Shown here: in pieces, positions 31 through 8,581 of the stretch
Position numbering within the stretch: the stretch's first letter is position 1
Layout of the letters: each line of letters begins with the position of its first letter
From: a virus
Lineage: Duplodnaviria > Heunggongvirae > Uroviricota > Caudoviricetes
Reading direction: 5' to 3' (one strand)
Length of the DNA: 8,581 nucleotides
Virus record (IMG/VR): IMGVR_UViG_2740892423_000012
Notes under the pieces: model-generated
What the model saw: only the letters and a program-made list of their open reading frames with translations
The model's database searches: none
Told to the model about the DNA's origin: nothing
Translations under genes and position numbers: made by a program

Positions 31-208
31 ATGACAAAGTCATCGGGCATTATCTGAACATAAAACACTATCAATAAGTTGGAGTCATTACCCGAAACGC
101 TCCAGAAATAAACGCAAGCCAATCCCAAAAGAATCTGACGTAAAAACCTTCAATTACACAGCTCACCTGTGGGATATCCGGTGGCTAAGATATCGTGCGA
201 GGAAATGA
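31..208 (+). pseudogene. ninE: ninE-like gene, apparently frameshifted (ATG at 31 reads MTKSSGII then stops at 55-57; the NinE-like reading continues in the next frame to the TGA at 206-208)
   Basis: Frame-2 translation 35..208 ends ...[39 protein letters not shown], matching the lambda NinE C-terminus as I remember it. That frame has a stop at 32-34 and no ATG/GTG/TTG after it. The only nearby ATG (31-33, overlapping the upstream stop as ATGA) is in frame 1 and terminates after 8 codons. Confidence 0.5.
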
Positions 209-552
209 CAATGGATTATTCACAGTTAAGTGATTTTGAAATTAACAGAATGGTAGGAGACATAATTTTTAAAGGCCTTTGGGCAAGTAAACCGGAAACA
301 TCAGGGAATAACACCAACAAATGGTATTACGGAAATGCTGATACAACTTTTGAGCCATTAAATCATTTGCCTGATTACTGCAATGATCCGAGCGCTTCAT
401 GGCCGATTATTGAGAAATACAGGATTTCTATCTTAGACCAGTTAACTGAATGGTGTGTGGATGCAAAAGGCGTAAGCCCAATATTTGATACCAGACCTCT
501 CCGCGCCGCCATGATTGTCTTTCTCCTGATGCAGGAGGCCAATAATGCTTAG
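205..552 (+). CDS. nin-region protein of unknown function, possibly NinX/DUF2591-like (115 aa from ATG 205; alternative start ATG 211)
   Basis: Open frame to TAG 550-552. ATG 205 overlaps the ninE stop (ATGA); GAGGAA at 198-203 could serve ATG 211. Position between ninE and ninF matches the P22-type nin order. Family assignment is from memory and uncertain. Confidence 0.6.
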
Positions 553-656
553 CCCATCTCAATCCCTTCAATACCTGAAAGGAAGCATAGAGCGGGCTTC
601 AATGTGCACAGAGTGGATTCTATCTAGGTTTAGCGCATACAGAAGATTGCCGGTAA
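545..656 (+). pseudogene. ninF: ninF-like gene, frameshifted and degraded
   Basis: From ATG 545 the translation [18 protein letters not shown] matches the lambda NinF N-terminus as remembered, then diverges. The next frame (603..656) gives CAQSGFYLGLAHTEDCR*, which resembles the NinF CANCG... segment with the CxxC motif degraded. The 64-aa ORF 545..739 in the track is a chimeric read-through. Confidence 0.5.
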
Positions 657-762
657 AGGGCATGCCAAGCAAGTCGATGCTGCATATGCAAAAGAATGCG
701 CGCTGGAAGGTATGGCGAAAACACAGGTTATGTGGCTGAAAGAGGGGATTATTAAGGCGTGA
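634..762 (+). pseudogene. ybcO: C-terminal fragment of a YbcO-like (DUF1364 putative nuclease) gene; 5' part missing
   Basis: Frame-1 translation [42 protein letters not shown] ends with TGA 760-762 overlapping the rusA GTG start (GTGA). In-frame stops lie at 625-627 and 631-633 with no start codon after them. The C-terminus resembles DLP12 YbcO from memory. Confidence 0.5.
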
Positions 763-1121
763 ATACCTACAGCATCACATTACCCTGGCCTCCGAGCAAT
801 AATCGCTATTACCGCCATAATCGCGGGCGCACGCACGTCAGCGCAGAGGGGCAGGCATACCGCGATAACGTCGCCAGAATCATTAAAAACGCAATGCTGG
901 ATATCGGCCTGGCTATCCCTGTGAAAATCCGCATTGAGTGCCACATGCCGGATCGCCGTCGCCGTGACCTGGATAATCTGCAAAAAGCCGCTTTTGACGC
1001 ACTCACTAAAGCAGGTTTCTGGCTGGATGATGCTCAGGTCGTTGATTACCGCGTTGTGAAGATGCCTGTTACCAAAGGTGGGAGGCTGGAACTGACCATC
1101 ACCGAAATGGGGAATAAATGA
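759..1121 (+). CDS. rusA: Holliday junction resolvase RusA (crossover junction endodeoxyribonuclease), GTG start
   Basis: 120-aa translation [38 protein letters not shown]... is recognisably RusA of DLP12-type prophages. Stop TGA 1119-1121. Confidence 0.92.
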
Positions 1122-1258
1122 TGTTTGAGTTTTATATGGCAGAACTTCTTCGCCACCGCTGGGGGCATCTGCGCTTATATCGTTTCCCCGGTTCTGTTTT
1201 GACCGATTACCGAATACTGAAGAATTACGCCAAAACCCTGACAGGAGCAGGAGTATGA
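1118..1258 (+). CDS. ylcG: small phage protein YlcG-like (46 aa)
   Basis: ATG 1118 overlaps the rusA stop (ATGA). Translation [46 protein letters not shown], stop 1256-1258. Too short to appear in the ORF track. Gene order rusA-ylcG-Q matches DLP12. Confidence 0.7.
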
Positions 1259-1343
1259 AGTCAGAGATAACAATCAACTAATACTGTTTTGTTGATTTTT
1301 GCTTGTAATTGGCGTTCTGGTCTGATTTTTGTGGAGTAAGTTG

Positions 1344-1727
1344 ATGCGTGATATTCAGATGGTTCTTGAGCGTTGGGGAGCGTGGGCGGCTAATAATCAT
1401 GAAGATGTGACCTGGTCGTCCATTGCCGCCGGTTTTAAGGGATTAATTACTTCAAAAGTAAAATCTCGCCCGCAATGTTGTGACGATGACGCGATGATTA
1501 TTTGCGGGTGCATGGCCCGTCTGAAAAAGAACAACAGCGATTTGCACGATTTATTAGTAGATTATTATGTAGTCGGTATGACATTCATGTCACTGGCAGG
1601 TAAGCATTGCTGCTCTGATGGTTATATCGGGAAAAGGTTACAGAAGGCTGAGGGCATAATTGAAGGGATGTTAATGGCATTAGATATCCGGTTAGAGATG
1701 GATATCGTTGTTAATAACTCTAATTAA
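1344..1727 (+). CDS. quuD: late-gene antiterminator Q (phage 82 / QuuD type), 127 aa
   Basis: ATG 1344 preceded by GGAG at 1333-1336. Translation [26 protein letters not shown]...DIVVNNSN*. The track's TTG start at 1329 is an upstream extension. Confidence 0.9.
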
Positions 1728-1760
1728 TATGCCAATTATTTACTAAAACTTATTAAAAAT

Positions 1761-1778
1761 GGGGCGTTGAGACGCCCC
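1761..1778 (-). terminator. putative rho-independent terminator for leftward (nmpC) transcription
   Basis: 7-bp GC-rich stem GGGGCGT/ACGCCCC with loop TGAG. On the - strand the hairpin is followed by AUUUUUAAUAAG. It lies about 140 nt downstream of the nmpC stop. Confidence 0.45.
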
Positions 1779-1866
1779 CAAAAATAAAGGGTAATATATA
1801 ACAGAAGGTTTATATAGTTAGAAGCAAGGTTGTGCTTCTAAAGGAAGTGGCTTGAGGGAGCCACTT

Positions 1867-1907
1867 ATATGTTGGGGAGGCAACGCCTCCCGCAACATAT
1901 CTTTTTC
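1867..1907 (+). terminator. long imperfect palindrome followed by a T-run; candidate + strand terminator (tR'-like or Q-operon terminator)
   Basis: ATATGTTG-GGGAGGC-AAC-GCCTCCC-GCAACATAT (1867-1900) followed by CTTTTTCG. Two further stem-loops sit just upstream (1819-1840, 1845-1866). Confidence 0.4.
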
Positions 1908-1916
1908 GTAATCAGA

Positions 1917-3014
1917 TTAGAACTGGTAAACCAGACCTACAGCAACGATGTCATCAGTGCTTACACCGAGTGCTTTAGTGAAGTCATTTTTGTCAAGCAG
2001 GTTGATTTTGTAATCAACGAAAGTAGACATATTTTTGTTGAAGTAATAGGTTGCACCTACATCAACATATTTGACTAAGTCCTGATCGCCCCATACTCCA
2101 AGATCCTTACCTTTAGATTGCAGGTAAGCAACGGACGGACGCAGACCGAAATCGAACTGATATTGTGCAACAGCTTCGAAGTTTTGGGCTTTATTAGCAA
2201 CGAAGTGATCAGCAAATACAGTCATATTCTGGGTTTCAGAATAGGTAGTGGCCAGGTAAATGTTGTTAGCGTCATATTTCAGACCTGCGGCCCAAACTTC
2301 TGCATTTTTACCGGAAGCAAATACTTCAGGAAGAACTTTCCCTGCATTAACTTGAGTGTCGGTACGATCAGATTTCGCATAAGTTGCACCGATACCGAAT
2401 CCTTCGTATTCATAGGTAGCAGAGAAACCGAAGCCATCACCGTTACCTTCAGTGTAGTTATCGAAATCGCTACGATCGTTTTTGCCTTGGTACTGAGCAG
2501 CAAAGTTCAGACCATCAACCAGACCAAAGAAGTCGTTGTTACGATAGGTTGCAACACCAGTTGCACGTTGAGTCATGAACACGTCGGTTTGAGTCCAAGT
2601 GTCACCACCGAATTCTGGCAGGACGTCAGTCCACGCACCGATGTCGTATGCTACACCGTAGTTACGGCCGTAATCGATGGAGCCGTAGTCACCGAATTTC
2701 AGGCCAGCGAAGGCAAGACGGGTTTTATCTTTGGAGGAACCTTGAGATTCAGCGCGGTTGCCTTTGAATTCATATTCCCACTGACCGAAACCAGTCAGTT
2801 GATCGTTGATTTGGGTTTCACCTTTGAAGCCAAGACGGGCATAAGTAGTATCACCATCATCTGCATCATTAGAGGAGAAGTAGTGCTTAGCATTAACTTT
2901 CCCGTACAGATCCAGCTTGTTACTGTCTTTATTATAAATTTCAGCTGCCTGAGCAGACATCGCCATCAGTACTGATGCAGCTACAGCAGAAATTGCCACT
3001 GTTAATTTTTTCAT
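1917..3014 (-). CDS. nmpC: outer-membrane general porin, OmpC/OmpF family (NmpC/Lc-like), 365 aa with signal peptide; intact
   Basis: ATG at 3012-3014 (complement) gives [23 protein letters not shown]|AEIYNK... (cleavable signal peptide) and ends ...VGLVYQF* with the C-terminal Phe typical of beta-barrel porins. The ORF track's 385-aa version begins at an upstream in-frame ATG. No interrupting insertion is present. Confidence 0.9.
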
Positions 3015-3441
3015 CGTGAGCCCTTTTTTTGAACTATTATTAAAAAATGATGTCACTGCGCGATAAATATTCATCTAATCAATGTGATTATTTCAAGATG
3101 TAAGTTTTGGTTTCTCGTTTGATTTGTGAAGTAGATCTCTATTTTTATCTGAACTTTTTTCTATCGAATCCTATTCATGGCTCTTGGCTGAATAAAAATA
3201 AATCTATTAGCCAATTTATATTAACGGCTGTTATTTATAAGTGCTCTATAATTTGAAGGTTCAATTTAAATTGGCTAAAAATAACGCTGGAAATTATTTG
3301 TTGGTTATTTGTTGAGATTTGCTTATGTATTTGTAGTGGTGTTTTCAATACTCGGTAGCATTCTCGCAAATATCATTTAGTGGTTTACGTACGTAAAAAA
3401 TTGGTTATGCTGTTAAGAGTGGTTACTTCGTCACACAGCTT

Positions 3442-3474
3442 AAACCCGCCGTCGAGCGGGTTTTTCCATTTTTT
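3442..3474 (+). terminator. strong rho-independent terminator upstream of the lysis genes (tR'-like)
   Basis: 8-bp stem AAACCCGC/GCGGGTTT with loop CGTCGA, followed by TTTTTCCATTTTTT. It lies about 110 nt upstream of the holin start. Confidence 0.6.
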
Positions 3475-3586
3475 GAGTCTCGATATTAGCTGATAACCCA
3501 ATACCTGAGTTATTCACTGACTCCGAGTCTGTTACGTTTCGTAGTATTCCCTCAATTTACACCCGCTTTGTCTGCGAGGTGGGGTT

Positions 3587-3802
3587 ATGAAATCCATGGA
3601 TAAGTTAACAACGGGTGTCGCCTATGGCACCTCAGCAGGTAGTGCCGGGTACTGGTTTTTACAGCTGCTCGATAAAGTCACGCCCTCACAGTGGGCAGCA
3701 ATAGGTGTGCTGGGTAGCCTGGTATTTGGCCTGCTGACGTACCTGACAAACCTTTATTTCAAGATTAAAGAAGATAAGCGCAAGGCTGCGAGAGGTGAAT
3801 AA
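3587..3802 (+). CDS. essD: class II holin of the phage 21 S (pinholin) type with dual-start motif; 71 aa from ATG 3587, 68 aa from ATG 3596
   Basis: Translation [71 protein letters not shown] has two hydrophobic segments and a charged C-terminus. SD GAGGT at 3576-3580. The Met-Lys-Ser-Met start is the classical antiholin/holin pair. Confidence 0.9.
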
Positions 3803-4299
3803 TGCCTCCATCATTACGAAAAGCTGTTGCTGCTGCTATTGGTGGCGGGGCTATTGCTATAGCATCTGTGTTAATCACTGGCCCAAGTGGTAACGATGGT
3901 CTGGAAGGTGTGAGACATAATCCTTACAAAGACATAGTTGGTGTATGGACTGTATGTTACGGGCATACAGGAAAAGACATCATTCCCGGTAAAACGTATA
4001 CCGAAGCAGAGTGCAAAGCCCTCCTGAATAAAGACCTTGCCACTGTCGCCAGACAAATTAACCGGTACATCAAAGTCGATATACCGGAAACAACGCGCGG
4101 CGCTCTTTACTCGTTCGTCTACAACGTGGGTGCTGGCAATTTCAGAACATCGACGCTTCTTCGCAAAATAAACCAGGGTGATATTAAAGGCGCATGTGAT
4201 CAGCTACGGCGCTGGACATACGCTGGCGGTAATCAATGGAAAGGACTGATGACTCGCCGTGAGATTGAGCGTGAAGTCTGTTTGTGGGGGAAACAATGA
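3802..4299 (+). CDS. rrrD: SAR endolysin (T4 E-like lysozyme with N-terminal signal-anchor-release domain), 165 aa
   Basis: ATG overlaps the holin stop (TAATG). The N-terminal Gly/Ala-rich hydrophobic stretch [20 protein letters not shown] is followed by E-x8-D-x5-T catalytic spacing ([16 protein letters not shown]). Ends ...CLWGKQ*. Confidence 0.9.
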
Positions 4300-4754
4300 G
4301 CAGAGTAACCGCGATTATCTCCGCTCTGGTTATCTGCATCATCGTCTGCCTGTCATTGGCTGTTAATCATTACCGTGATAACGCAATCGCCTACAAAGAG
4401 CAGCGCGATAACAAGGCCAGTGAACTGGAGAAGGCGAACGCCACCATCGCTGACATGCGGAAGCGTCAACGTGATGTAGCAGAACTCGACGCAAGATACA
4501 CAAAGGAGCTTGCTGATGCTAACGCGACTATCGAAAGTCTCCGTGCTGATGTTTCTGCTGGGCGTAAGCGCCTGCAAGTCGCCGCCACCTGTGCAAAGTC
4601 AACGACCGGAGCCAGCGGCATGGGCGATGGAGAAAGCCCAGGACTTACAGCAGATGCTGAACTCAATTATTACCGTCTCCGAAGTGGAATCGACAAGATA
4701 ACCGCGCAGGTTAACTACCTGCAGGAATACATCAGGACGCAATGTCTGAAATAA
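4296..4754 (+). CDS. rzpD: Rz i-spanin (inner-membrane spanin subunit), 152 aa
   Basis: ATG 4296 overlaps the endolysin stop (ATGA). N-terminal [21 protein letters not shown] followed by a charged helical periplasmic domain. The track's start at 4284 is an upstream extension. Confidence 0.85.
4516..4701 (+). CDS. rzoD: Rz1 o-spanin (outer-membrane lipoprotein), embedded in the +1 frame of Rz, 61 aa
   Basis: AAGGAG at 4503-4508 sits 7 nt before ATG 4516. Translation [20 protein letters not shown]|[16 protein letters not shown]... has a lipobox Cys and a Pro-rich mature region. It lies wholly inside Rz. Confidence 0.8.
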
Positions 4755-4785
4755 TTTTTTTGCAAATCACAAAGTCCATTTAATG

Positions 4786-4810
4786 AGCCTCGCGATGCGG
4801 GGCTTTTTTG
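4786..4810 (+). terminator. rho-independent terminator after the lysis cassette
   Basis: Stem AGCCTCGC/GCGGGGCT (one G-U wobble) with loop GAT, followed by TTTTTT. Confidence 0.7.
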
Positions 4811-4816
4811 CAATAA

Positions 4817-4843
4817 ATGCGTACCGCAACGCATGTTTTTTTT
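4817..4843 (+). terminator. second tandem terminator
   Basis: Stem ATGCGT/ACGCAT with loop ACCGCA, followed by G and an 8-nt T-run. Confidence 0.55.
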
Positions 4844-4958
4844 ACACCGAACCTGCCCCTTTGGAATGGGCCTTTGAGGATACCAGTTAGTGCTGGCGAG
4901 CCTCGGTGGGCTGGTTTCCTGTGCGGCAAAGGTTCATTTCAAATGGTAGGTAAACGTT

Positions 4959-5480
4959 ATGAATATCGTGCCACTTAATTACAAAGGTGAAATTGTCAGT
5001 TTCAACACTGATGGTTGGATCAACGTCACAGGTGTTGCTGAGAGATTTGGGAAACGCATTGATAACTGGATGCGTTTGGCAGAAACGCTTGAATACGTTC
5101 GTGCTTTAGACGAAGCGTTGACCGGGAAAGAATCTCAAATTTTACATCCCTCACAATCGAGGTATGTAAAAACCAGCAAGGCACGAAAGGACAGGGGTGG
5201 TGGTACGTGGCTACATCCAAAACTTTCAGTTGCATTTGCCCGTTGGTGTGATGCTCGTTTTGCTGTGTGGTGCGATCTGCACATTGATAGTCTGCTTCGC
5301 GGTGAACTGACTGAGCAGCAGAAATATGAGCAAGCATGTCGCATTCGCGATGACCGGAAATCAAAAGCCAGCAATGGGGCAAGAGAGATGGCTCGCTGGC
5401 GATGGGATAAGCCGGTTATTGAAGCAAATGTTGAGTACTGGCGCGAGCAACTGCAGTTGACTCTCGATATCGCGTGCTGA
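4959..5480 (+). CDS. KilA-N domain protein, 173 aa
   Basis: ATG 4959 with a weak SD (AGGT, 7-nt spacing). The segment GGTWLHPKLSVAFARWCDARFAVWCDLHIDSLL matches the conserved core of the KilA-N DNA-binding domain as remembered. The C-terminal third is charged and helical. Confidence 0.7.
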   Translation: MNIVPLNYKGEIVSFNTDGWINVTGVAERFGKRIDNWMRLAETLEYVRALDEALTGKESQILHPSQSRYVKTSKARKDRGGGTWLHPKLSVAFARWCDARFAVWCDLHIDSLLRGELTEQQKYEQACRIRDDRKSKASNGAREMARWRWDKPVIEANVEYWREQLQLTLDIAC

Positions 5481-5697
5481 TGGCAAACGCAAAACTGCGT
5501 TATCGAAAAAATCAAAGCATTACTAGAACTGAGCAACGGCTATCCATTACAAAGCCCATCTACGGGTGGGCTTGATAATGGCTTATACCCTGCACGGGAT
5601 AACTTAACTGATATCCCTTTTAACGGATAAAGGCATTCAAGCCTGACACATCATGCGCTGTATCGTCGCCGTATTCCCGCATTAACCATGACCGTAG

Positions 5698-5949
5698 CCC
5701 GACGGGGAATTCCTTCTGCGTGAGTGTGCGGGAATAATCAAAAACGATGCACACCGAGTTTTTACCGCGTTTATGGTTCGCGGGTTTGTCTCTCATGCTC
5801 CCCGTTCTGCTGCTTGGTTCTTCACGTTACGTGGTTGTCTCCTTTACCCGGAAGATCTGGAGCGCGTCACGCAGATTATTAATGGTGGGAAAAACGGCAT
5901 TAAAGACCGCCGTGAACGTTACGTCAAAGCTAAAGTCGCATTGGTGTGA
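5698..5949 (+). pseudogene. C-terminal remnant of a GH19 (chitinase-like) endolysin
   Basis: Frame-1 translation ...SHAPRSAAWFFTLRGCLLYPEDLERVTQIINGGKNGIKDRRERYVKAKVALV* carries the family-19 IINGG..G motif and a degenerate AWF motif. In-frame stops lie immediately upstream (5689-5697) and no N-terminal catalytic half exists in any frame between 5481 and 5697. Confidence 0.4.
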
Positions 5950-5968
5950 GGTCTATGTGGGAATTGAA

Positions 5969-6247
5969 ATGATTGTCGGCCTGATTGCTGCCTTGCTGGC
6001 AGTAATAGCCGGTGCTTTTGGTCTGGGTAAATCTCGCGGTGCAAGTATCGCTGAGACAAAAGCGAACCAGCAACGCACTAAAGAACGTGCAACTGCTACT
6101 GAAGTCGTTGCAATACGCCGGGTAGAAACAACAAAAGGAGCCTGGGATGTACAGCAGATTGTTAATCATCTTCCTGATGGCGATGTTGACCGTGAGTTGC
6201 GCGAAAGATTTACCCGAAAAAACTGCAGTAACAGACACGGCTTGTGA
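5969..6247 (+). CDS. i-spanin-like protein (N-terminal TMD plus charged helical domain), 92 aa
   Basis: ATG 5969 lies 20 nt after the endolysin-remnant stop. Translation MIVGLIAALLAVIAGAFGLGKSRGASIAETKANQQRTKERATATEVVAIRR.... The 166-aa track ORF from 5747 is an upstream extension through the endolysin remnant in another frame. Confidence 0.5.
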   Translation: MIVGLIAALLAVIAGAFGLGKSRGASIAETKANQQRTKERATATEVVAIRRVETTKGAWDVQQIVNHLPDGDVDRELRERFTRKNCSNRHGL

Positions 6248-6362
6248 CTGGGTGAACATCATCTACCTCACTGAGCACGATATTACCGTGCAGGATAAGC
6301 AGACGAAGCGGGACATATTGGCGCATAACAAATCAGTGCAGGCTAACTGTAGAATGTATTGA
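6147..6362 (+). CDS. o-spanin-like outer-membrane lipoprotein, overlapping the 3' end of the previous gene in the +1 frame and extending beyond it, 71 aa
   Basis: Strong SD AAGGAG at 6135-6140, 6 nt before the ATG. Signal peptide with lipobox MYSRLLIIFLMAMLTVSC; the mature part contains two further Cys residues. The overlapped (P2 LysB/LysC-like) architecture is typical of spanins. Confidence 0.55.
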   Translation: MYSRLLIIFLMAMLTVSCAKDLPEKTAVTDTACDWVNIIYLTEHDITVQDKQTKRDILAHNKSVQANCRMY

Positions 6363-6515
6363 AACTAATACTTTTGTAAGCGAATGTGTGTAAGTGCGAC
6401 ATGGTTGTGTGTTTTATCTAAGAATTGTTTTGCCGTAAAAGAGCATTTTGTGGTTGTAAAAAATGTGGGGAACTCGCTATAGTTCAGCCATAGAAAGCAG
6501 CTTTTCATTTTTTTT

Positions 6516-6536
6516 AAGCCTCATTTGAGGCTTTTT
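6516..6536 (+). terminator. putative rho-independent terminator
   Basis: Stem AAGCCTC/GAGGCTT with loop ATTT, followed by a T-run, and preceded by a T-run. Confidence 0.45.
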
Positions 6537-6561
6537 GCACATTTAGAAATTGAGTAAATGG

Positions 6562-6599
6562 CACATATAGTGTTTTCAGTGTTAAAAAAACACTATATG
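6562..6599. promoter_or_regulatory. perfect 14-bp inverted repeat (operator-like) with overlapping -10-like hexamer
   Basis: ACATATAGTGTTTT (6562-6575), 10-bp spacer, AAAACACTATATGT (6586-6599). TATAGT at 6566-6571 lies inside the left arm. The repeat sits 26 nt upstream of the 66-aa ORF start. Confidence 0.45.
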
Positions 6600-6624
6600 T
6601 AGCACTACAATAGGAGATTCCACT

Positions 6625-6825
6625 ATGAGCCCGGCTGAGTTCTACGATTTCTATGGCATTAAACCTGCAGAGATGATGACTGGAGAAACTGTTAACAACT
6701 TTGCTTCCAGGGTACTTGCTCAACAAACGAGTACGAGTGGTAGTACCGGCGTTTGGTACTCTCAAGGTACTGCAGCGCAGGCTAAGCAAAATCAAAGTAC
6801 ACATCATCAACTTTACACCTACTAA
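6625..6825 (+). CDS. small hypothetical protein (66 aa), first gene of a two-gene operon
   Basis: Good SD AGGAG at 6611-6615, 9 nt before ATG 6625. Translation MSPAEFYDFYGIKPAEMMTGETVNNFASRVLAQQTSTSGSTGVWYSQGTAAQAKQNQSTHHQLYTY. The stop is 5 nt before the next ATG. No family recognised. Confidence 0.55.
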   Translation: MSPAEFYDFYGIKPAEMMTGETVNNFASRVLAQQTSTSGSTGVWYSQGTAAQAKQNQSTHHQLYTY

Positions 6826-6830
6826 ACACC

Positions 6831-7733
6831 ATGCCTAATTGGAGTGACGTACTGGGCGAGATGACGGCTCTCGCCCAGAAGAGTCCGATGGATGAGGTTC
6901 GCCGTAAATATTTATTACAACTGTCTAATCACACTGGAAGAAATGTAATTACATATTATTCCGGATGGTTGCAACATGGTGGTGCAGAAGTCCGACATCT
7001 CACCCTGATGACAGATGATGATAAAAATGGATTAATGACTGTTATTAATGGTTTAGATGTTACAAAGGGGGTGGATTTAATATTACATACCCCTGGAGGT
7101 GATATCGCTGCCTTAGAGTCTATTGGTCATTATCTGCGTTCTAAGTTTGGGACTGATATCAGAGCTATCGTTCCTATGATTTCAATGTCATGTGGTACCA
7201 TGCTTGCGTGCTGTGCTAATGAAATCATAATGGGTAAACAGTCCAATATTGGCCCGATTGACCCTCAGTTTAATGGATTTTCTACACATGCTATTATTGA
7301 GGAATGGAATAGAGCTCAGGCGGAAATTTTTAACAATCCAGCAGCTGTGCAAATGTGGCAGTTTATACTTCAGAAACTCAACCCCACTATTATCGGAGAG
7401 TGTGAAAAAGCTATCCAATGGGCGAATGAGATTGTCAAGCACTGGCTTATGACGGGTATGTTTGCAAATGATCCGGAGTCAGAAACAAAAGCAACTCATG
7501 TATGCTCAGAGCTGAACAATCATCATACAACTTACACTCATTCGAGACATATCCATTTCGATAAAGCTCAGAAAATTGGATTGAATGTTACAGAACTGGA
7601 AAGTGATCAAGTCCTCCAGGATTTGGTTTTGACCATACATCACAGTTACATGCACTCGTTTGGTGGAGCCCCGATCGCAAAGATCATAGAAAACCATAAT
7701 GGGAATGCTATGATTTGGAATATGCAATCGTAA
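6831..7733 (+). CDS. ClpP/SppA-fold serine peptidase (S49 / SDH 'serine dehydrogenase proteinase'-like), 300 aa
   Basis: LILHTPGGD motif (compare ClpP/SppA ...SPGG) followed by ISMSCGTMLA with a candidate nucleophile Ser. The gene is visibly AT-rich relative to its neighbours. There is no SD before ATG 6831 (suggesting coupling to the upstream ORF); alternative in-frame starts exist at 6861 and 6888. Confidence 0.75.
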   Translation: MPNWSDVLGEMTALAQKSPMDEVRRKYLLQLSNHTGRNVITYYSGWLQHGGAEVRHLTLMTDDDKNGLMTVINGLDVTKGVDLILHTPGGDIAALESIGHYLRSKFGTDIRAIVPMISMSCGTMLACCANEIIMGKQSNIGPIDPQFNGFSTHAIIEEWNRAQAEIFNNPAAVQMWQFILQKLNPTIIGECEKAIQWANEIVKHWLMTGMFANDPESETKATHVCSELNNHHTTYTHSRHIHFDKAQKIGLNVTELESDQVLQDLVLTIHHSYMHSFGGAPIAKIIENHNGNAMIWNMQS

Positions 7734-7755
7734 GAACCTATTTACACACCATATT

Positions 7756-7781
7756 AGCCTCGCAGTAGCGGGGCTTTTTTA
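7756..7781 (+). terminator. rho-independent terminator; near-duplicate of the 4786-4810 terminator
   Basis: Stem AGCCTCGC/GCGGGGCT with loop AGTA, followed by TTTTTT. The stem arms are identical to the terminator after Rz. Confidence 0.7.
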
Positions 7782-7904
7782 TGCGCATCGCACGCGCACA
7801 TCAAAGAGAGTCTTTCAGTAATGATTCTGGATATCATAGCTATAAATACAATTGATAGTTATTTTCATTTTGGCGGGTCCTTTCCGGCGATCCGACAGGC
7901 TACG

Positions 7905-8093
7905 GGGCGGAAGGCGCGCGGGTTTTCGCTATTTATGACAATTTTCCGGTTTAAGGCGTTTCCGTTCTTCTTCGCCGTAACCTAATGTTTTTATTTAAAA
8001 CACCCTATGAAAAGAAAGGAAACGACAGGTGCTGAAAACGAGCTTTTTGGCCTCTGTCGTTTCCTTTCTCTGTTTTTGTCCGTGGAATGAACA
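7905..8093 (+). other. cos packaging site: cosN-equivalent 12-mer (7905-7916) plus cosB (terminase small-subunit and IHF binding region)
   Basis: 7917..8093 (CGCGGGTTTTCGCTATTTATGA...GTCCGTGGAATGAACA) closely matches the lambda left-end cosB sequence as I remember it, and ...CGATCCGACAGGCTACG upstream matches the lambda right end. The 12-mer between them is GGGCGGAAGGCG. Confidence 0.65.
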
Positions 8094-8581
8094 ATGGAAG
8101 TCAACAAAAAGCAGCTGGCTGACATTTTCGGTGCGAGTATCCGTACCATTCAGAACTGGCAGGAACAGGGAATGCCCGTTCTGCGAGGCGGTGGCAAGGG
8201 TAATGAGGTGCTTTATGACTCTGCCGCCGTCATAAAATGGTATGCCGAAAGGGATGCTGAAATTGAGAACGAAAAGCTGCGCCGGGAGGTTGAAGAACTG
8301 CGGCAGGCCAGCGAGGCAGATCTCCAGCCAGGGACTATTGAGTACGAACGCCATCGACTTACGCGTGCGCAGGCCGACGCACAGGAACTGAAGAATGCCA
8401 GAGACTCCGCTGAAGTGGTGGAAACCGCATTCTGTACTTTCGTGTTGTCGCGGATCGCAGGTGAAATTGCCAGTATTCTCGACGGGCTCCCCCTGTCGGT
8501 GCAGCGGCGTTTTCCGGAACTGGAAAACCGACATGTTGATTTCCTGAAACGGGATATCATCAAAGCCATGAACAAAGCAGC
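8094..8581 (+). CDS. nu1: terminase small subunit Nu1 (lambda type), 5' partial: 162 codons, runs off the window
   Basis: Translation MEVNKKQLADIFGASIRTIQNWQEQGMPVLRGGGKGNEVLYDSAAVIKWYAERDAEIENEKLRREVEEL... is recognisably lambda Nu1 with its N-terminal winged-helix DNA-binding domain. It is absent from the ORF track only because no stop occurs within the window. Confidence 0.9.
   Translation, partial: MEVNKKQLADIFGASIRTIQNWQEQGMPVLRGGGKGNEVLYDSAAVIKWYAERDAEIENEKLRREVEELRQASEADLQPGTIEYERHRLTRAQADAQELKNARDSAEVVETAFCTFVLSRIAGEIASILDGLPLSVQRRFPELENRHVDFLKRDIIKAMNKA

Follow-up and report, generated by a model that had tools for sequence, protein, structure and literature searches.

In the cohesive-end site of phage lambda, the nicking site, cosN, is functionally asymmetric (Feiss et al. 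2015, PMC4669245). Mutations at bp 7-12 have a minimal effect, C11G giving no phenotype, whereas the left-half change G2C lowers the yield ~10-fold. The asymmetry depends on the nearby cosB, where TerS bound at R3 positions TerL for the bottom-strand nick (PMC4669245). Natural cosN sites also differ within bp 7-12, N15 and phiD326 at positions 9 and 12 and Gifsy-1 at positions 8, 9 and 11; cosQ, which serves as the packaging-termination signal, is conserved, as are the CG pairs that flank cosN, the latter highly so (PMC4669245). Lambda carrying the cosN of N15 yielded 132 pfu per cell as against 120 with its own cosN, and the authors concluded that bp 1-6 are under sequence selection and bp 7-12 are not (PMC4669245). 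The spacing between cosN and cosB, finally, is critical (PMC9026076).

The locus described here lies in an 8,581-nucleotide stretch of DNA from a tailed-phage record (IMGVR_UViG_2740892423_000012), which in its full length is called the window below. An earlier note on this DNA had placed between 7860 and 7930 a cohesive end that departs from lambda's by five changes in the right half amid lambda-like flanks. These observations hold. The 12-mer GGGCGGAAGGCG is present as a single copy at 7905-7916 on the + strand (expected number 0, from 200 shuffles), and lambda (J02459) does begin with GGGCGGCGACCT, its last letters being ...CCGACAGGTTACG (final GGTTACG). The surrounding cosQ, CG pairs and R3, R2 and R1 sites match lambda, as do the 162 visible residues of Nu1 (162/162). 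The elements of the site are the following:

7875-7881, + strand: cosQ heptamer GGGTCCT, the packaging-termination signal; identical to lambda's, with a 23-nt spacer to the cohesive end as in lambda
7903-7904, + strand: CG dinucleotide at the top-strand nick (7904/7905), as in lambda
7905-7910, + strand: left half of cosN, GGGCGG, identical to lambda's
7911-7916, + strand: right half of cosN, AAGGCG (CGACCT in lambda); five of six bases changed, C11 retained
7917-7918, + strand: CG dinucleotide at the bottom-strand nick (7916/7917), as in lambda
7919-7953, + strand: spacer from cosN to R3, of lambda length, with one substitution (A>C at 7939)
7954-7969, + strand: cosB site R3, AGGCGTTTCCGTTCTT, the critical TerS binding site; equal to lambda bp 50-65, at offset +50 as in lambda
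7970-8012, + strand: interval from R3 to R2 (IHF site I1 in lambda), of lambda length, with five substitutions (7975, 7977, 7982, 8001 and 8007)
8013-8028, - strand: cosB site R2, AGAAAGGAAACGACAG, inverted relative to R3 and R1; equal to lambda bp 109-124
8054-8069, + strand: cosB site R1, CTGTCGTTTCCTTTCT; equal to lambda bp 151-166
8094-8581, + strand: 5′ part of Nu1, the small terminase subunit TerS (Pfam Phage_Nu1, E = 1.5e-99), running past the end of the window

Positions 7903-7918 thus read CG, GGGCGG, AAGGCG and CG, so that the left half and both CG flanks of a lambda-type cos are in place; what AAGGCG lacks is identity with lambda in the right half, which the literature does not count as defining. 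On the cosB side, all three sites of a lambda-type complex cosB are identical to those of lambda, R1 lying 1 nt nearer than in lambda through a 1-nt deletion between R2 and R1 that is common to K-12 DLP12 and the prophage of E. coli E47. A simple cosB of the N15 type has one R3-type site, no I1, R2 or R1, and a TerS start at about +89; the window has R2 and R1 and the ATG of Nu1 at 8094, +190 from the left end, and is not of this type. Neither does it look like a decayed cos, with subsites lost or scattered and terminase truncated, for the subsites and the visible part of Nu1 are intact.

Relative to lambda, the cohesive end carries C7A, G8A, A9G, C10G and T12G, so that C11 alone is retained in the right half. 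Counted from bp 1 of the cohesive end through to 8581, the window departs from lambda at 14 places, five of them in the 6-bp right half and nine in the other ~670 bp, and these nine are inter-site spacer or synonymous changes. The earlier note had left two interpretations side by side: a variant cohesive end of this lineage, or a damaged cosN that prevents packaging. Under the second, the clustered changes would be decay in a cryptic prophage, the site uncuttable and the element unpackageable. Decay, however, would scatter changes over the region rather than gather five of them in 6 bp, and it would hardly leave every functional element intact and the Nu1 protein 100% identical. The clustering in the right half far exceeds chance and, on the alignment, marks the patch as a block allele rather than as scattered decay.

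Comparison with close relatives leads to the same patch from the other side. Against the E47 prophage, to which window 5544-8581 is 98.8% identical, there are no mismatches at 6433-7910 and then 12 within 7911-8038, and the cosN of E47 is canonical, as it is in K-12 DLP12 and eight further relatives. Polymorphisms on the cosB side (GCCGTAACCTAATG and AAAACACC) were considered as companions of the variant 12-mer and rejected, PhiR47_2 and Stx1_9793 pairing the same haplotype with a canonical cosN. Because this cosB haplotype also accompanies canonical cosN, the five-base patch appears to be a tight block allele and no part of a long diverged tract. The 21 nt that follow the 12-mer (7917-7937, CGCGGGTTTTCGCTATTTATG) are unchanged beside at least three cosB types, a recurrence on which our later scans bring no independent check since they required CGCGGGTTTTCGCTATTTATG.

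The rest of the window reads as a segment of a mosaic lambdoid prophage. At 1-92 the window carries the right end of an IS1 that has gone into ninE; this end is 100% identical to plasmid IS1A/IS1B copies and has the C-terminus of InsB in frame 3; homology to phage ev099 begins at 93. From there to 5756 the window matches this isolated phage one gene to one gene (NinX, NinF, RusA, YlcG, Q, a porin on the minus strand, holin, lysozyme, Rz and KilA-N). Within this part, the block running from Q through the porin to the lysis genes (673-4565) is 96-99% identical to K-12 DLP12, and the nmpC/OmpD-type porin gene (1917-3074, minus strand, a 385-aa open reading frame) is intact in the window, in contrast to its K-12 counterpart, which is split by IS5. 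Positions 76-8507 (8,432 bp) are 100% identical to a second IMG/VR contig, IMGVR_UViG_2648501669_000006 (L150). One end of that contig lies in IS1, which accounts for the break, and the other inside Nu1, so that the prophage is visible only to Nu1 residue 162 and gpA falls outside it.

Directly upstream of cos, at 6831-7733 on the + strand, lies a 300-aa open reading frame for a ClpP-like, SDH-type serine protease (PF01972). In the contig collection the exact protein is indexed in 268 blocks, and in every one of the eight places listed it directly precedes Nu1. The eight relatives listed with it all have a canonical cosN. Placed between the lysis genes and Nu1, the protease looks like a cargo gene.

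This setting bears on the damage reading from both directions. The IS1 end interrupts ninE, so that one insertion at least has entered the prophage; both the window and contig L150 stop inside Nu1, with any later genes of the prophage out of view; and the close relative DLP12 is a known cryptic prophage. Yet DLP12, cryptic as it is, is itself canonical at cosN, and the late genes visible in the window match those of an isolated phage. The earlier note had also seen support for damage in frameshifted nin genes. That argument carries little weight: the genes match ev099 one for one, the only lesion seen in the window is the IS1 end at 1-92 within ninE, and this insertion is probably what gave the nin genes their damaged appearance. 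The nin region of lambda is, moreover, dispensable, as the nin5 deletion illustrates.

The allele was sought elsewhere with a 46-nt query centred on the 12-mer, in which every 28-nt megablast seed necessarily spans AAGGCG. Among 5,426 complete E. coli genomes, 156 carry the allele, as compared with ~4,047 E. coli genomes in which a lambda-like cos region is present, whatever its allele. Sixteen of the E. coli places are on plasmid records (~36-68 kb each among the matches listed), carriers that include ~46-kb extrachromosomal records and come from human, chicken, cat, dog and wild bird isolates. In E. coli A10, a prophage adjoining ttcA has an AAGGCG cosN and is annotated as intact from int to J, save for one frameshifted hypothetical gene. 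In the phage collection, the same 46-nt query matched two records and no others, PhiR46_1 (PV340565, host E. coli ECOR13) and YDC107_1 (CP025712), both with the identical 12-mer between lambda-type flanks. PhiR46_1 (L125) is an N15-like linear plasmid prophage with telL/telR, ParA/ParB and a large primase, combined with a complete lambda Nu1-A-W-B-C-D-E...J module and a lambda-type cos and terminase. We presume that the 16 places on E. coli plasmid records are N15-like elements of the same kind.

Like PhiR46_1, YDC107_1 (L002) is an N15-like linear plasmid prophage, and in both the lambda terminase, head and tail module is 99% identical to that of lambda. A ~46.7-kb phage, 1H12, had been considered as sharing the allele with YDC107_1 and was discarded, its cosN being canonical.

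In IMG/VR, the 17-mer ACGGGGCGGAAGGCGCG is present in 93 contigs, 83 of which are genuine lambda-like cos sites. Around these 83 sites the 34-nt left flank takes 28 different forms and the right flank 27, and at least three cosB/TerS classes are represented. A scan of the contig collection with the same 17-mer gave, among the matches listed, only chance matches in unrelated and mostly G+C-rich genomes (Streptomyces, Sorangium and others). Whether the 12-mer could be an error of sequencing or assembly in G+C-rich DNA is quickly settled: it recurs in hundreds of independent assemblies, complete genomes included, and a separately derived IMG/VR contig agrees with the window without a mismatch across 8,432 bp, so that the probability of an artefact is negligible. 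As to damage, an uncuttable site would have to have been carried by 156 genomes, 83 contigs and two phage records, on dozens of flanks and next to intact gpA genes. To the extent that database records can tell, the 12-mer is found in viable lambdoid phages, PhiR46_1 and YDC107_1, the plaque-forming status of PhiR46_1 being read from the 'host' field of its record. We consider a damaged, unpackageable cosN very improbable; of the two interpretations in the earlier note, the variant cohesive end of a lineage is the one that stands.

No genome among the phage records and IMG/VR contigs examined starts or ends at GGGCGGAAGGCG. Among experimentally packaged elements we likewise met no instance of the allele, cos1 and cos2 of EcCICFT073, phi80 and phage 1H12, a phage with cos at the beginning of its record, all being canonical. 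Use of the AAGGCG site, cut by terminase to become a virion end, is what we infer from its anatomy and distribution.

The allele is not confined to one type of cosB. In a tally of the IMG/VR allele contigs that also includes PhiR46_1, 60 contigs have the lambda R3 cosB, 18 have another cosB with a Nu1 82% identical to lambda's and a cosQ-cosN spacer of 22 nt, and four have a satellite-type cosB and no gpA, their TerS-like protein being 35% identical to Nu1. The class with the 22-nt spacer (17-18 contigs, among them L129, L131, L135, L138 and L147) typically combines a Nu1 of ~82% with a gpA of ~99% identity, the exceptions being two contigs with the same cosB in which Nu1 is 53% and gpA 65% identical to lambda's. 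From its sequence, this class looks like one with a chimeric TerS of different DNA-binding specificity.

An ~11-kb satellite-like element has inserted into the gene for the major capsid protein of a lambda-like prophage at 483-11195 of L376 (E. coli strain 550, NZ_CP058223.1), and is also found in L122, L143, L194, L204 and L154. It splits the capsid gene of the host prophage into two annotated fragments. Its genes encode an integrase, an HTH regulator, a TIR-domain protein, an Icd-like protein, a primase, an SSB and an Abi protein, together with a major capsid and decoration proteins of its own, a second HTH regulator encoded shortly before cos, and a TerS-like protein with 35% identity to Nu1. 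The cosQ-cosN is the element's own and the cosB a distinct one. Some copies have AAGGCG as their cosN and others GGGCGTCAGGCG; the copy in L154 is canonical, and there the cos of the host prophage is AAGGCG.

The GGGCGTCAGGCG allele (L354, L356-L358, L360, L361 and others; 12 IMG/VR contigs) carries a G>T change at position 6, in the supposedly conserved left half. It occurs with both lambda-type and satellite-type cosB, though left-half changes have been reported as deleterious.

Five changes in the right half could also mean that the endonuclease has changed with its site, i.e. that the variant cosN works only with a correspondingly altered TerL and is unusable by the standard lambda terminase. 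The gpA of PhiR46_1, at 638 of 641 residues identical, is three residues off lambda, one of the three (T466I) falling in the C-terminal part, and the allele is without the central symmetric pair of cosN. Set against this, the large subunit beside the AAGGCG cosN is full length and 98-100% identical to lambda's in ~45 full-length loci (nearly all contigs that are long enough), with no substitution common to them that would be required, and in L177 a gpA identical to lambda's at 641 of 641 residues lies directly beside the variant cosN. In L154, moreover, the prophage has the variant cosN but the satellite lodged in it a canonical cos, and lambda TerL showed no preference between the lambda and N15 alleles of cosN (PMC4669245). 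Co-adapted specificity is accordingly a very unlikely explanation.

The reading that we regard as highly probable is that 7875-8581 is a lambda-type cos with a natural right-half allele, nicked by a TerS-anchored terminase, and spread by recombination. TerS (Nu1) would bind R3, R2 and R1 and anchor TerL (gpA) at a fixed distance, and TerL would nick the top strand at 7904/7905 and the bottom strand at 7916/7917. The product would have 5′-GGGCGGAAGGCG overhangs, each of which pairs again without mismatch to its complement upon entry into the cell. As the nicking protomer on the cosB-proximal side would owe its position to TerS at R3 rather than to contacts with bases, bp 7-12 would be free to vary; cosQ, bp 1-6, the CG flanks and the cosN-R3 spacing would be held constant. 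The allele itself would be an old block, moved by recombination into many lambdoid backgrounds, the mosaic prophage of the window among them. The window conforms exactly to the model of Feiss and colleagues (PMC4669245), with the constrained elements conserved and only the unconstrained hexamer changed. Published tests of the right half comprised one to three changes, as compared with the five of AAGGCG.

The number of changes has a counterpart in the symmetry of the site. Within the 16-bp core, eight of 16 positions are rotationally symmetric in the AAGGCG allele as against ten in lambda: the G2:C11 pair and both CG flanks are retained and the central G6:C7 pair is lost. Ten symmetric positions are kept in the lambda, N15, Gifsy-1, CAGACG and CAGGCG alleles. 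With this loss, some drop in the nicking efficiency of AAGGCG may occur. Annealing of the ends to themselves is predicted to be as stable as in lambda (-18.6 kcal/mol for the AAGGCG end vs -19.0 kcal/mol for the lambda end, with DNA parameters).

It is another matter when unlike ends meet. Annealing of an AAGGCG end with a canonical end is predicted at -9.6 kcal/mol, against about -19 for matched ends. Between lambda and N15 ends, which mismatch at two of 12 positions, the prediction is -15.2 kcal/mol, and this mismatch (2/12) costs four-fold in yield (PMC4669245). Phages with AAGGCG and CGACCT would share terminase specificity (the same R sites, gpA up to 100% identical), and mixed concatemers could therefore be cut at both. 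One may speculate, as a tentative and on balance doubtful idea, that right-half cosN alleles act as cyclization-compatibility groups. If so, when a packaged chromosome took one end from a variant cos and the other from a canonical cos, pairing of the two would be limited to the 6-bp left half, and the allele would partly isolate lineages or form a frequency-dependent barrier to recombinants. Such groups could also explain why there are few discrete dominant alleles and not a smear of neutral variants.

The distribution of natural right halves has been sampled in two ways. An IMG/VR scan with the pattern cosQ-N23-GGGCGG-N6-CG gave, among the matches listed, 92 of the canonical CGACCT, seven of the Gifsy-1 type CAGCGT, four of the N15 type CGTCCG and three of the AAGGCG allele of the window, besides several other right halves. 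Two further IMG/VR scans chose non-canonical 12-mers at the lambda-type right flank, and their results, pooled with loci fetched earlier, comprise 78 AAGGCG, 12 GGGCGTCAGGCG, four CAGGCG, three CAGACG and a few singletons. AAGGCG, next to this flank by far the most frequent, is the commonest non-canonical lambda-type cohesive end in the sampled IMG/VR loci. The alleles can be arranged in a series, CGACCT, CAGACG, CAGGCG and AAGGCG, in which the window allele is terminal and CAGGCG one substitution away from it.

For biology at large the finding has little weight; it amounts to a large-sample confirmation of the genetics of Feiss and colleagues for the cosB-proximal half of cosN. For annotation, a mismatch to GGGCGGCGACCT within bp 7-12 is no ground for calling a lambda-like prophage packaging-defective, and terminus tools that match the lambda 12-mer miss ~3-4% of the lambda-type cos sites of E. 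coli. With seven of 12 bases canonical and a lambda-identical terminase adjoining, AAGGCG is also a convenient natural reagent for studying how far the lambda chromosome tolerates cohesive-end mismatches.

The exact 12-mer or its complement was not found in the searchable text of the phage literature, which excludes the dedicated survey by Vahanian et al. 2017 (Virology 509:140). Natural right-half variants as such are well documented, namely GGGCGGCGTCCG in N15 and phiD326, GGGCGGCAGCGT in Gifsy-1, GGGCGGCGCGCT in mEp213/LLS and GGGCGGCAGACG in PICI-B/C (PMC4669245, PMC12315714 and PMC9026076 Table S1, jointly). Like these variants of N15, Gifsy-1, mEp213 and the PICIs, the window allele keeps bp 1-6, the CG flanks and cosQ, with changes limited to bp 7-12. 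It differs from them in degree, five of six right-half bases being changed rather than two to four, and it is the sole tabulated allele without the central G6:C7 symmetric pair, having eight symmetric positions where the others have ten.

Compared with lambda cos, the window is alike in cosQ and its 23-nt spacing, the CG flanks, GGGCGG, the cosN-R3 spacing, the R3, R2 and R1 sites and Nu1, and unlike it at bp 7, 8, 9, 10 and 12, in seven spacer substitutions between the R sites and in the 1-nt deletion between R2 and R1. K-12 DLP12, whose cos lies upstream of nohD, shares with the window rusA, Q, the nmpC-type porin, essD, rrrD, Rz, cos and a Nu1 homologue. Unlike the window it has the canonical GGGCGGCGACCT, an nmpC split by IS5 and a packaging module truncated after nohD. 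Right-half cosN variants are already known from nature in lambda-type complex cos sites, and among these the allele of the window is an ordinary one.
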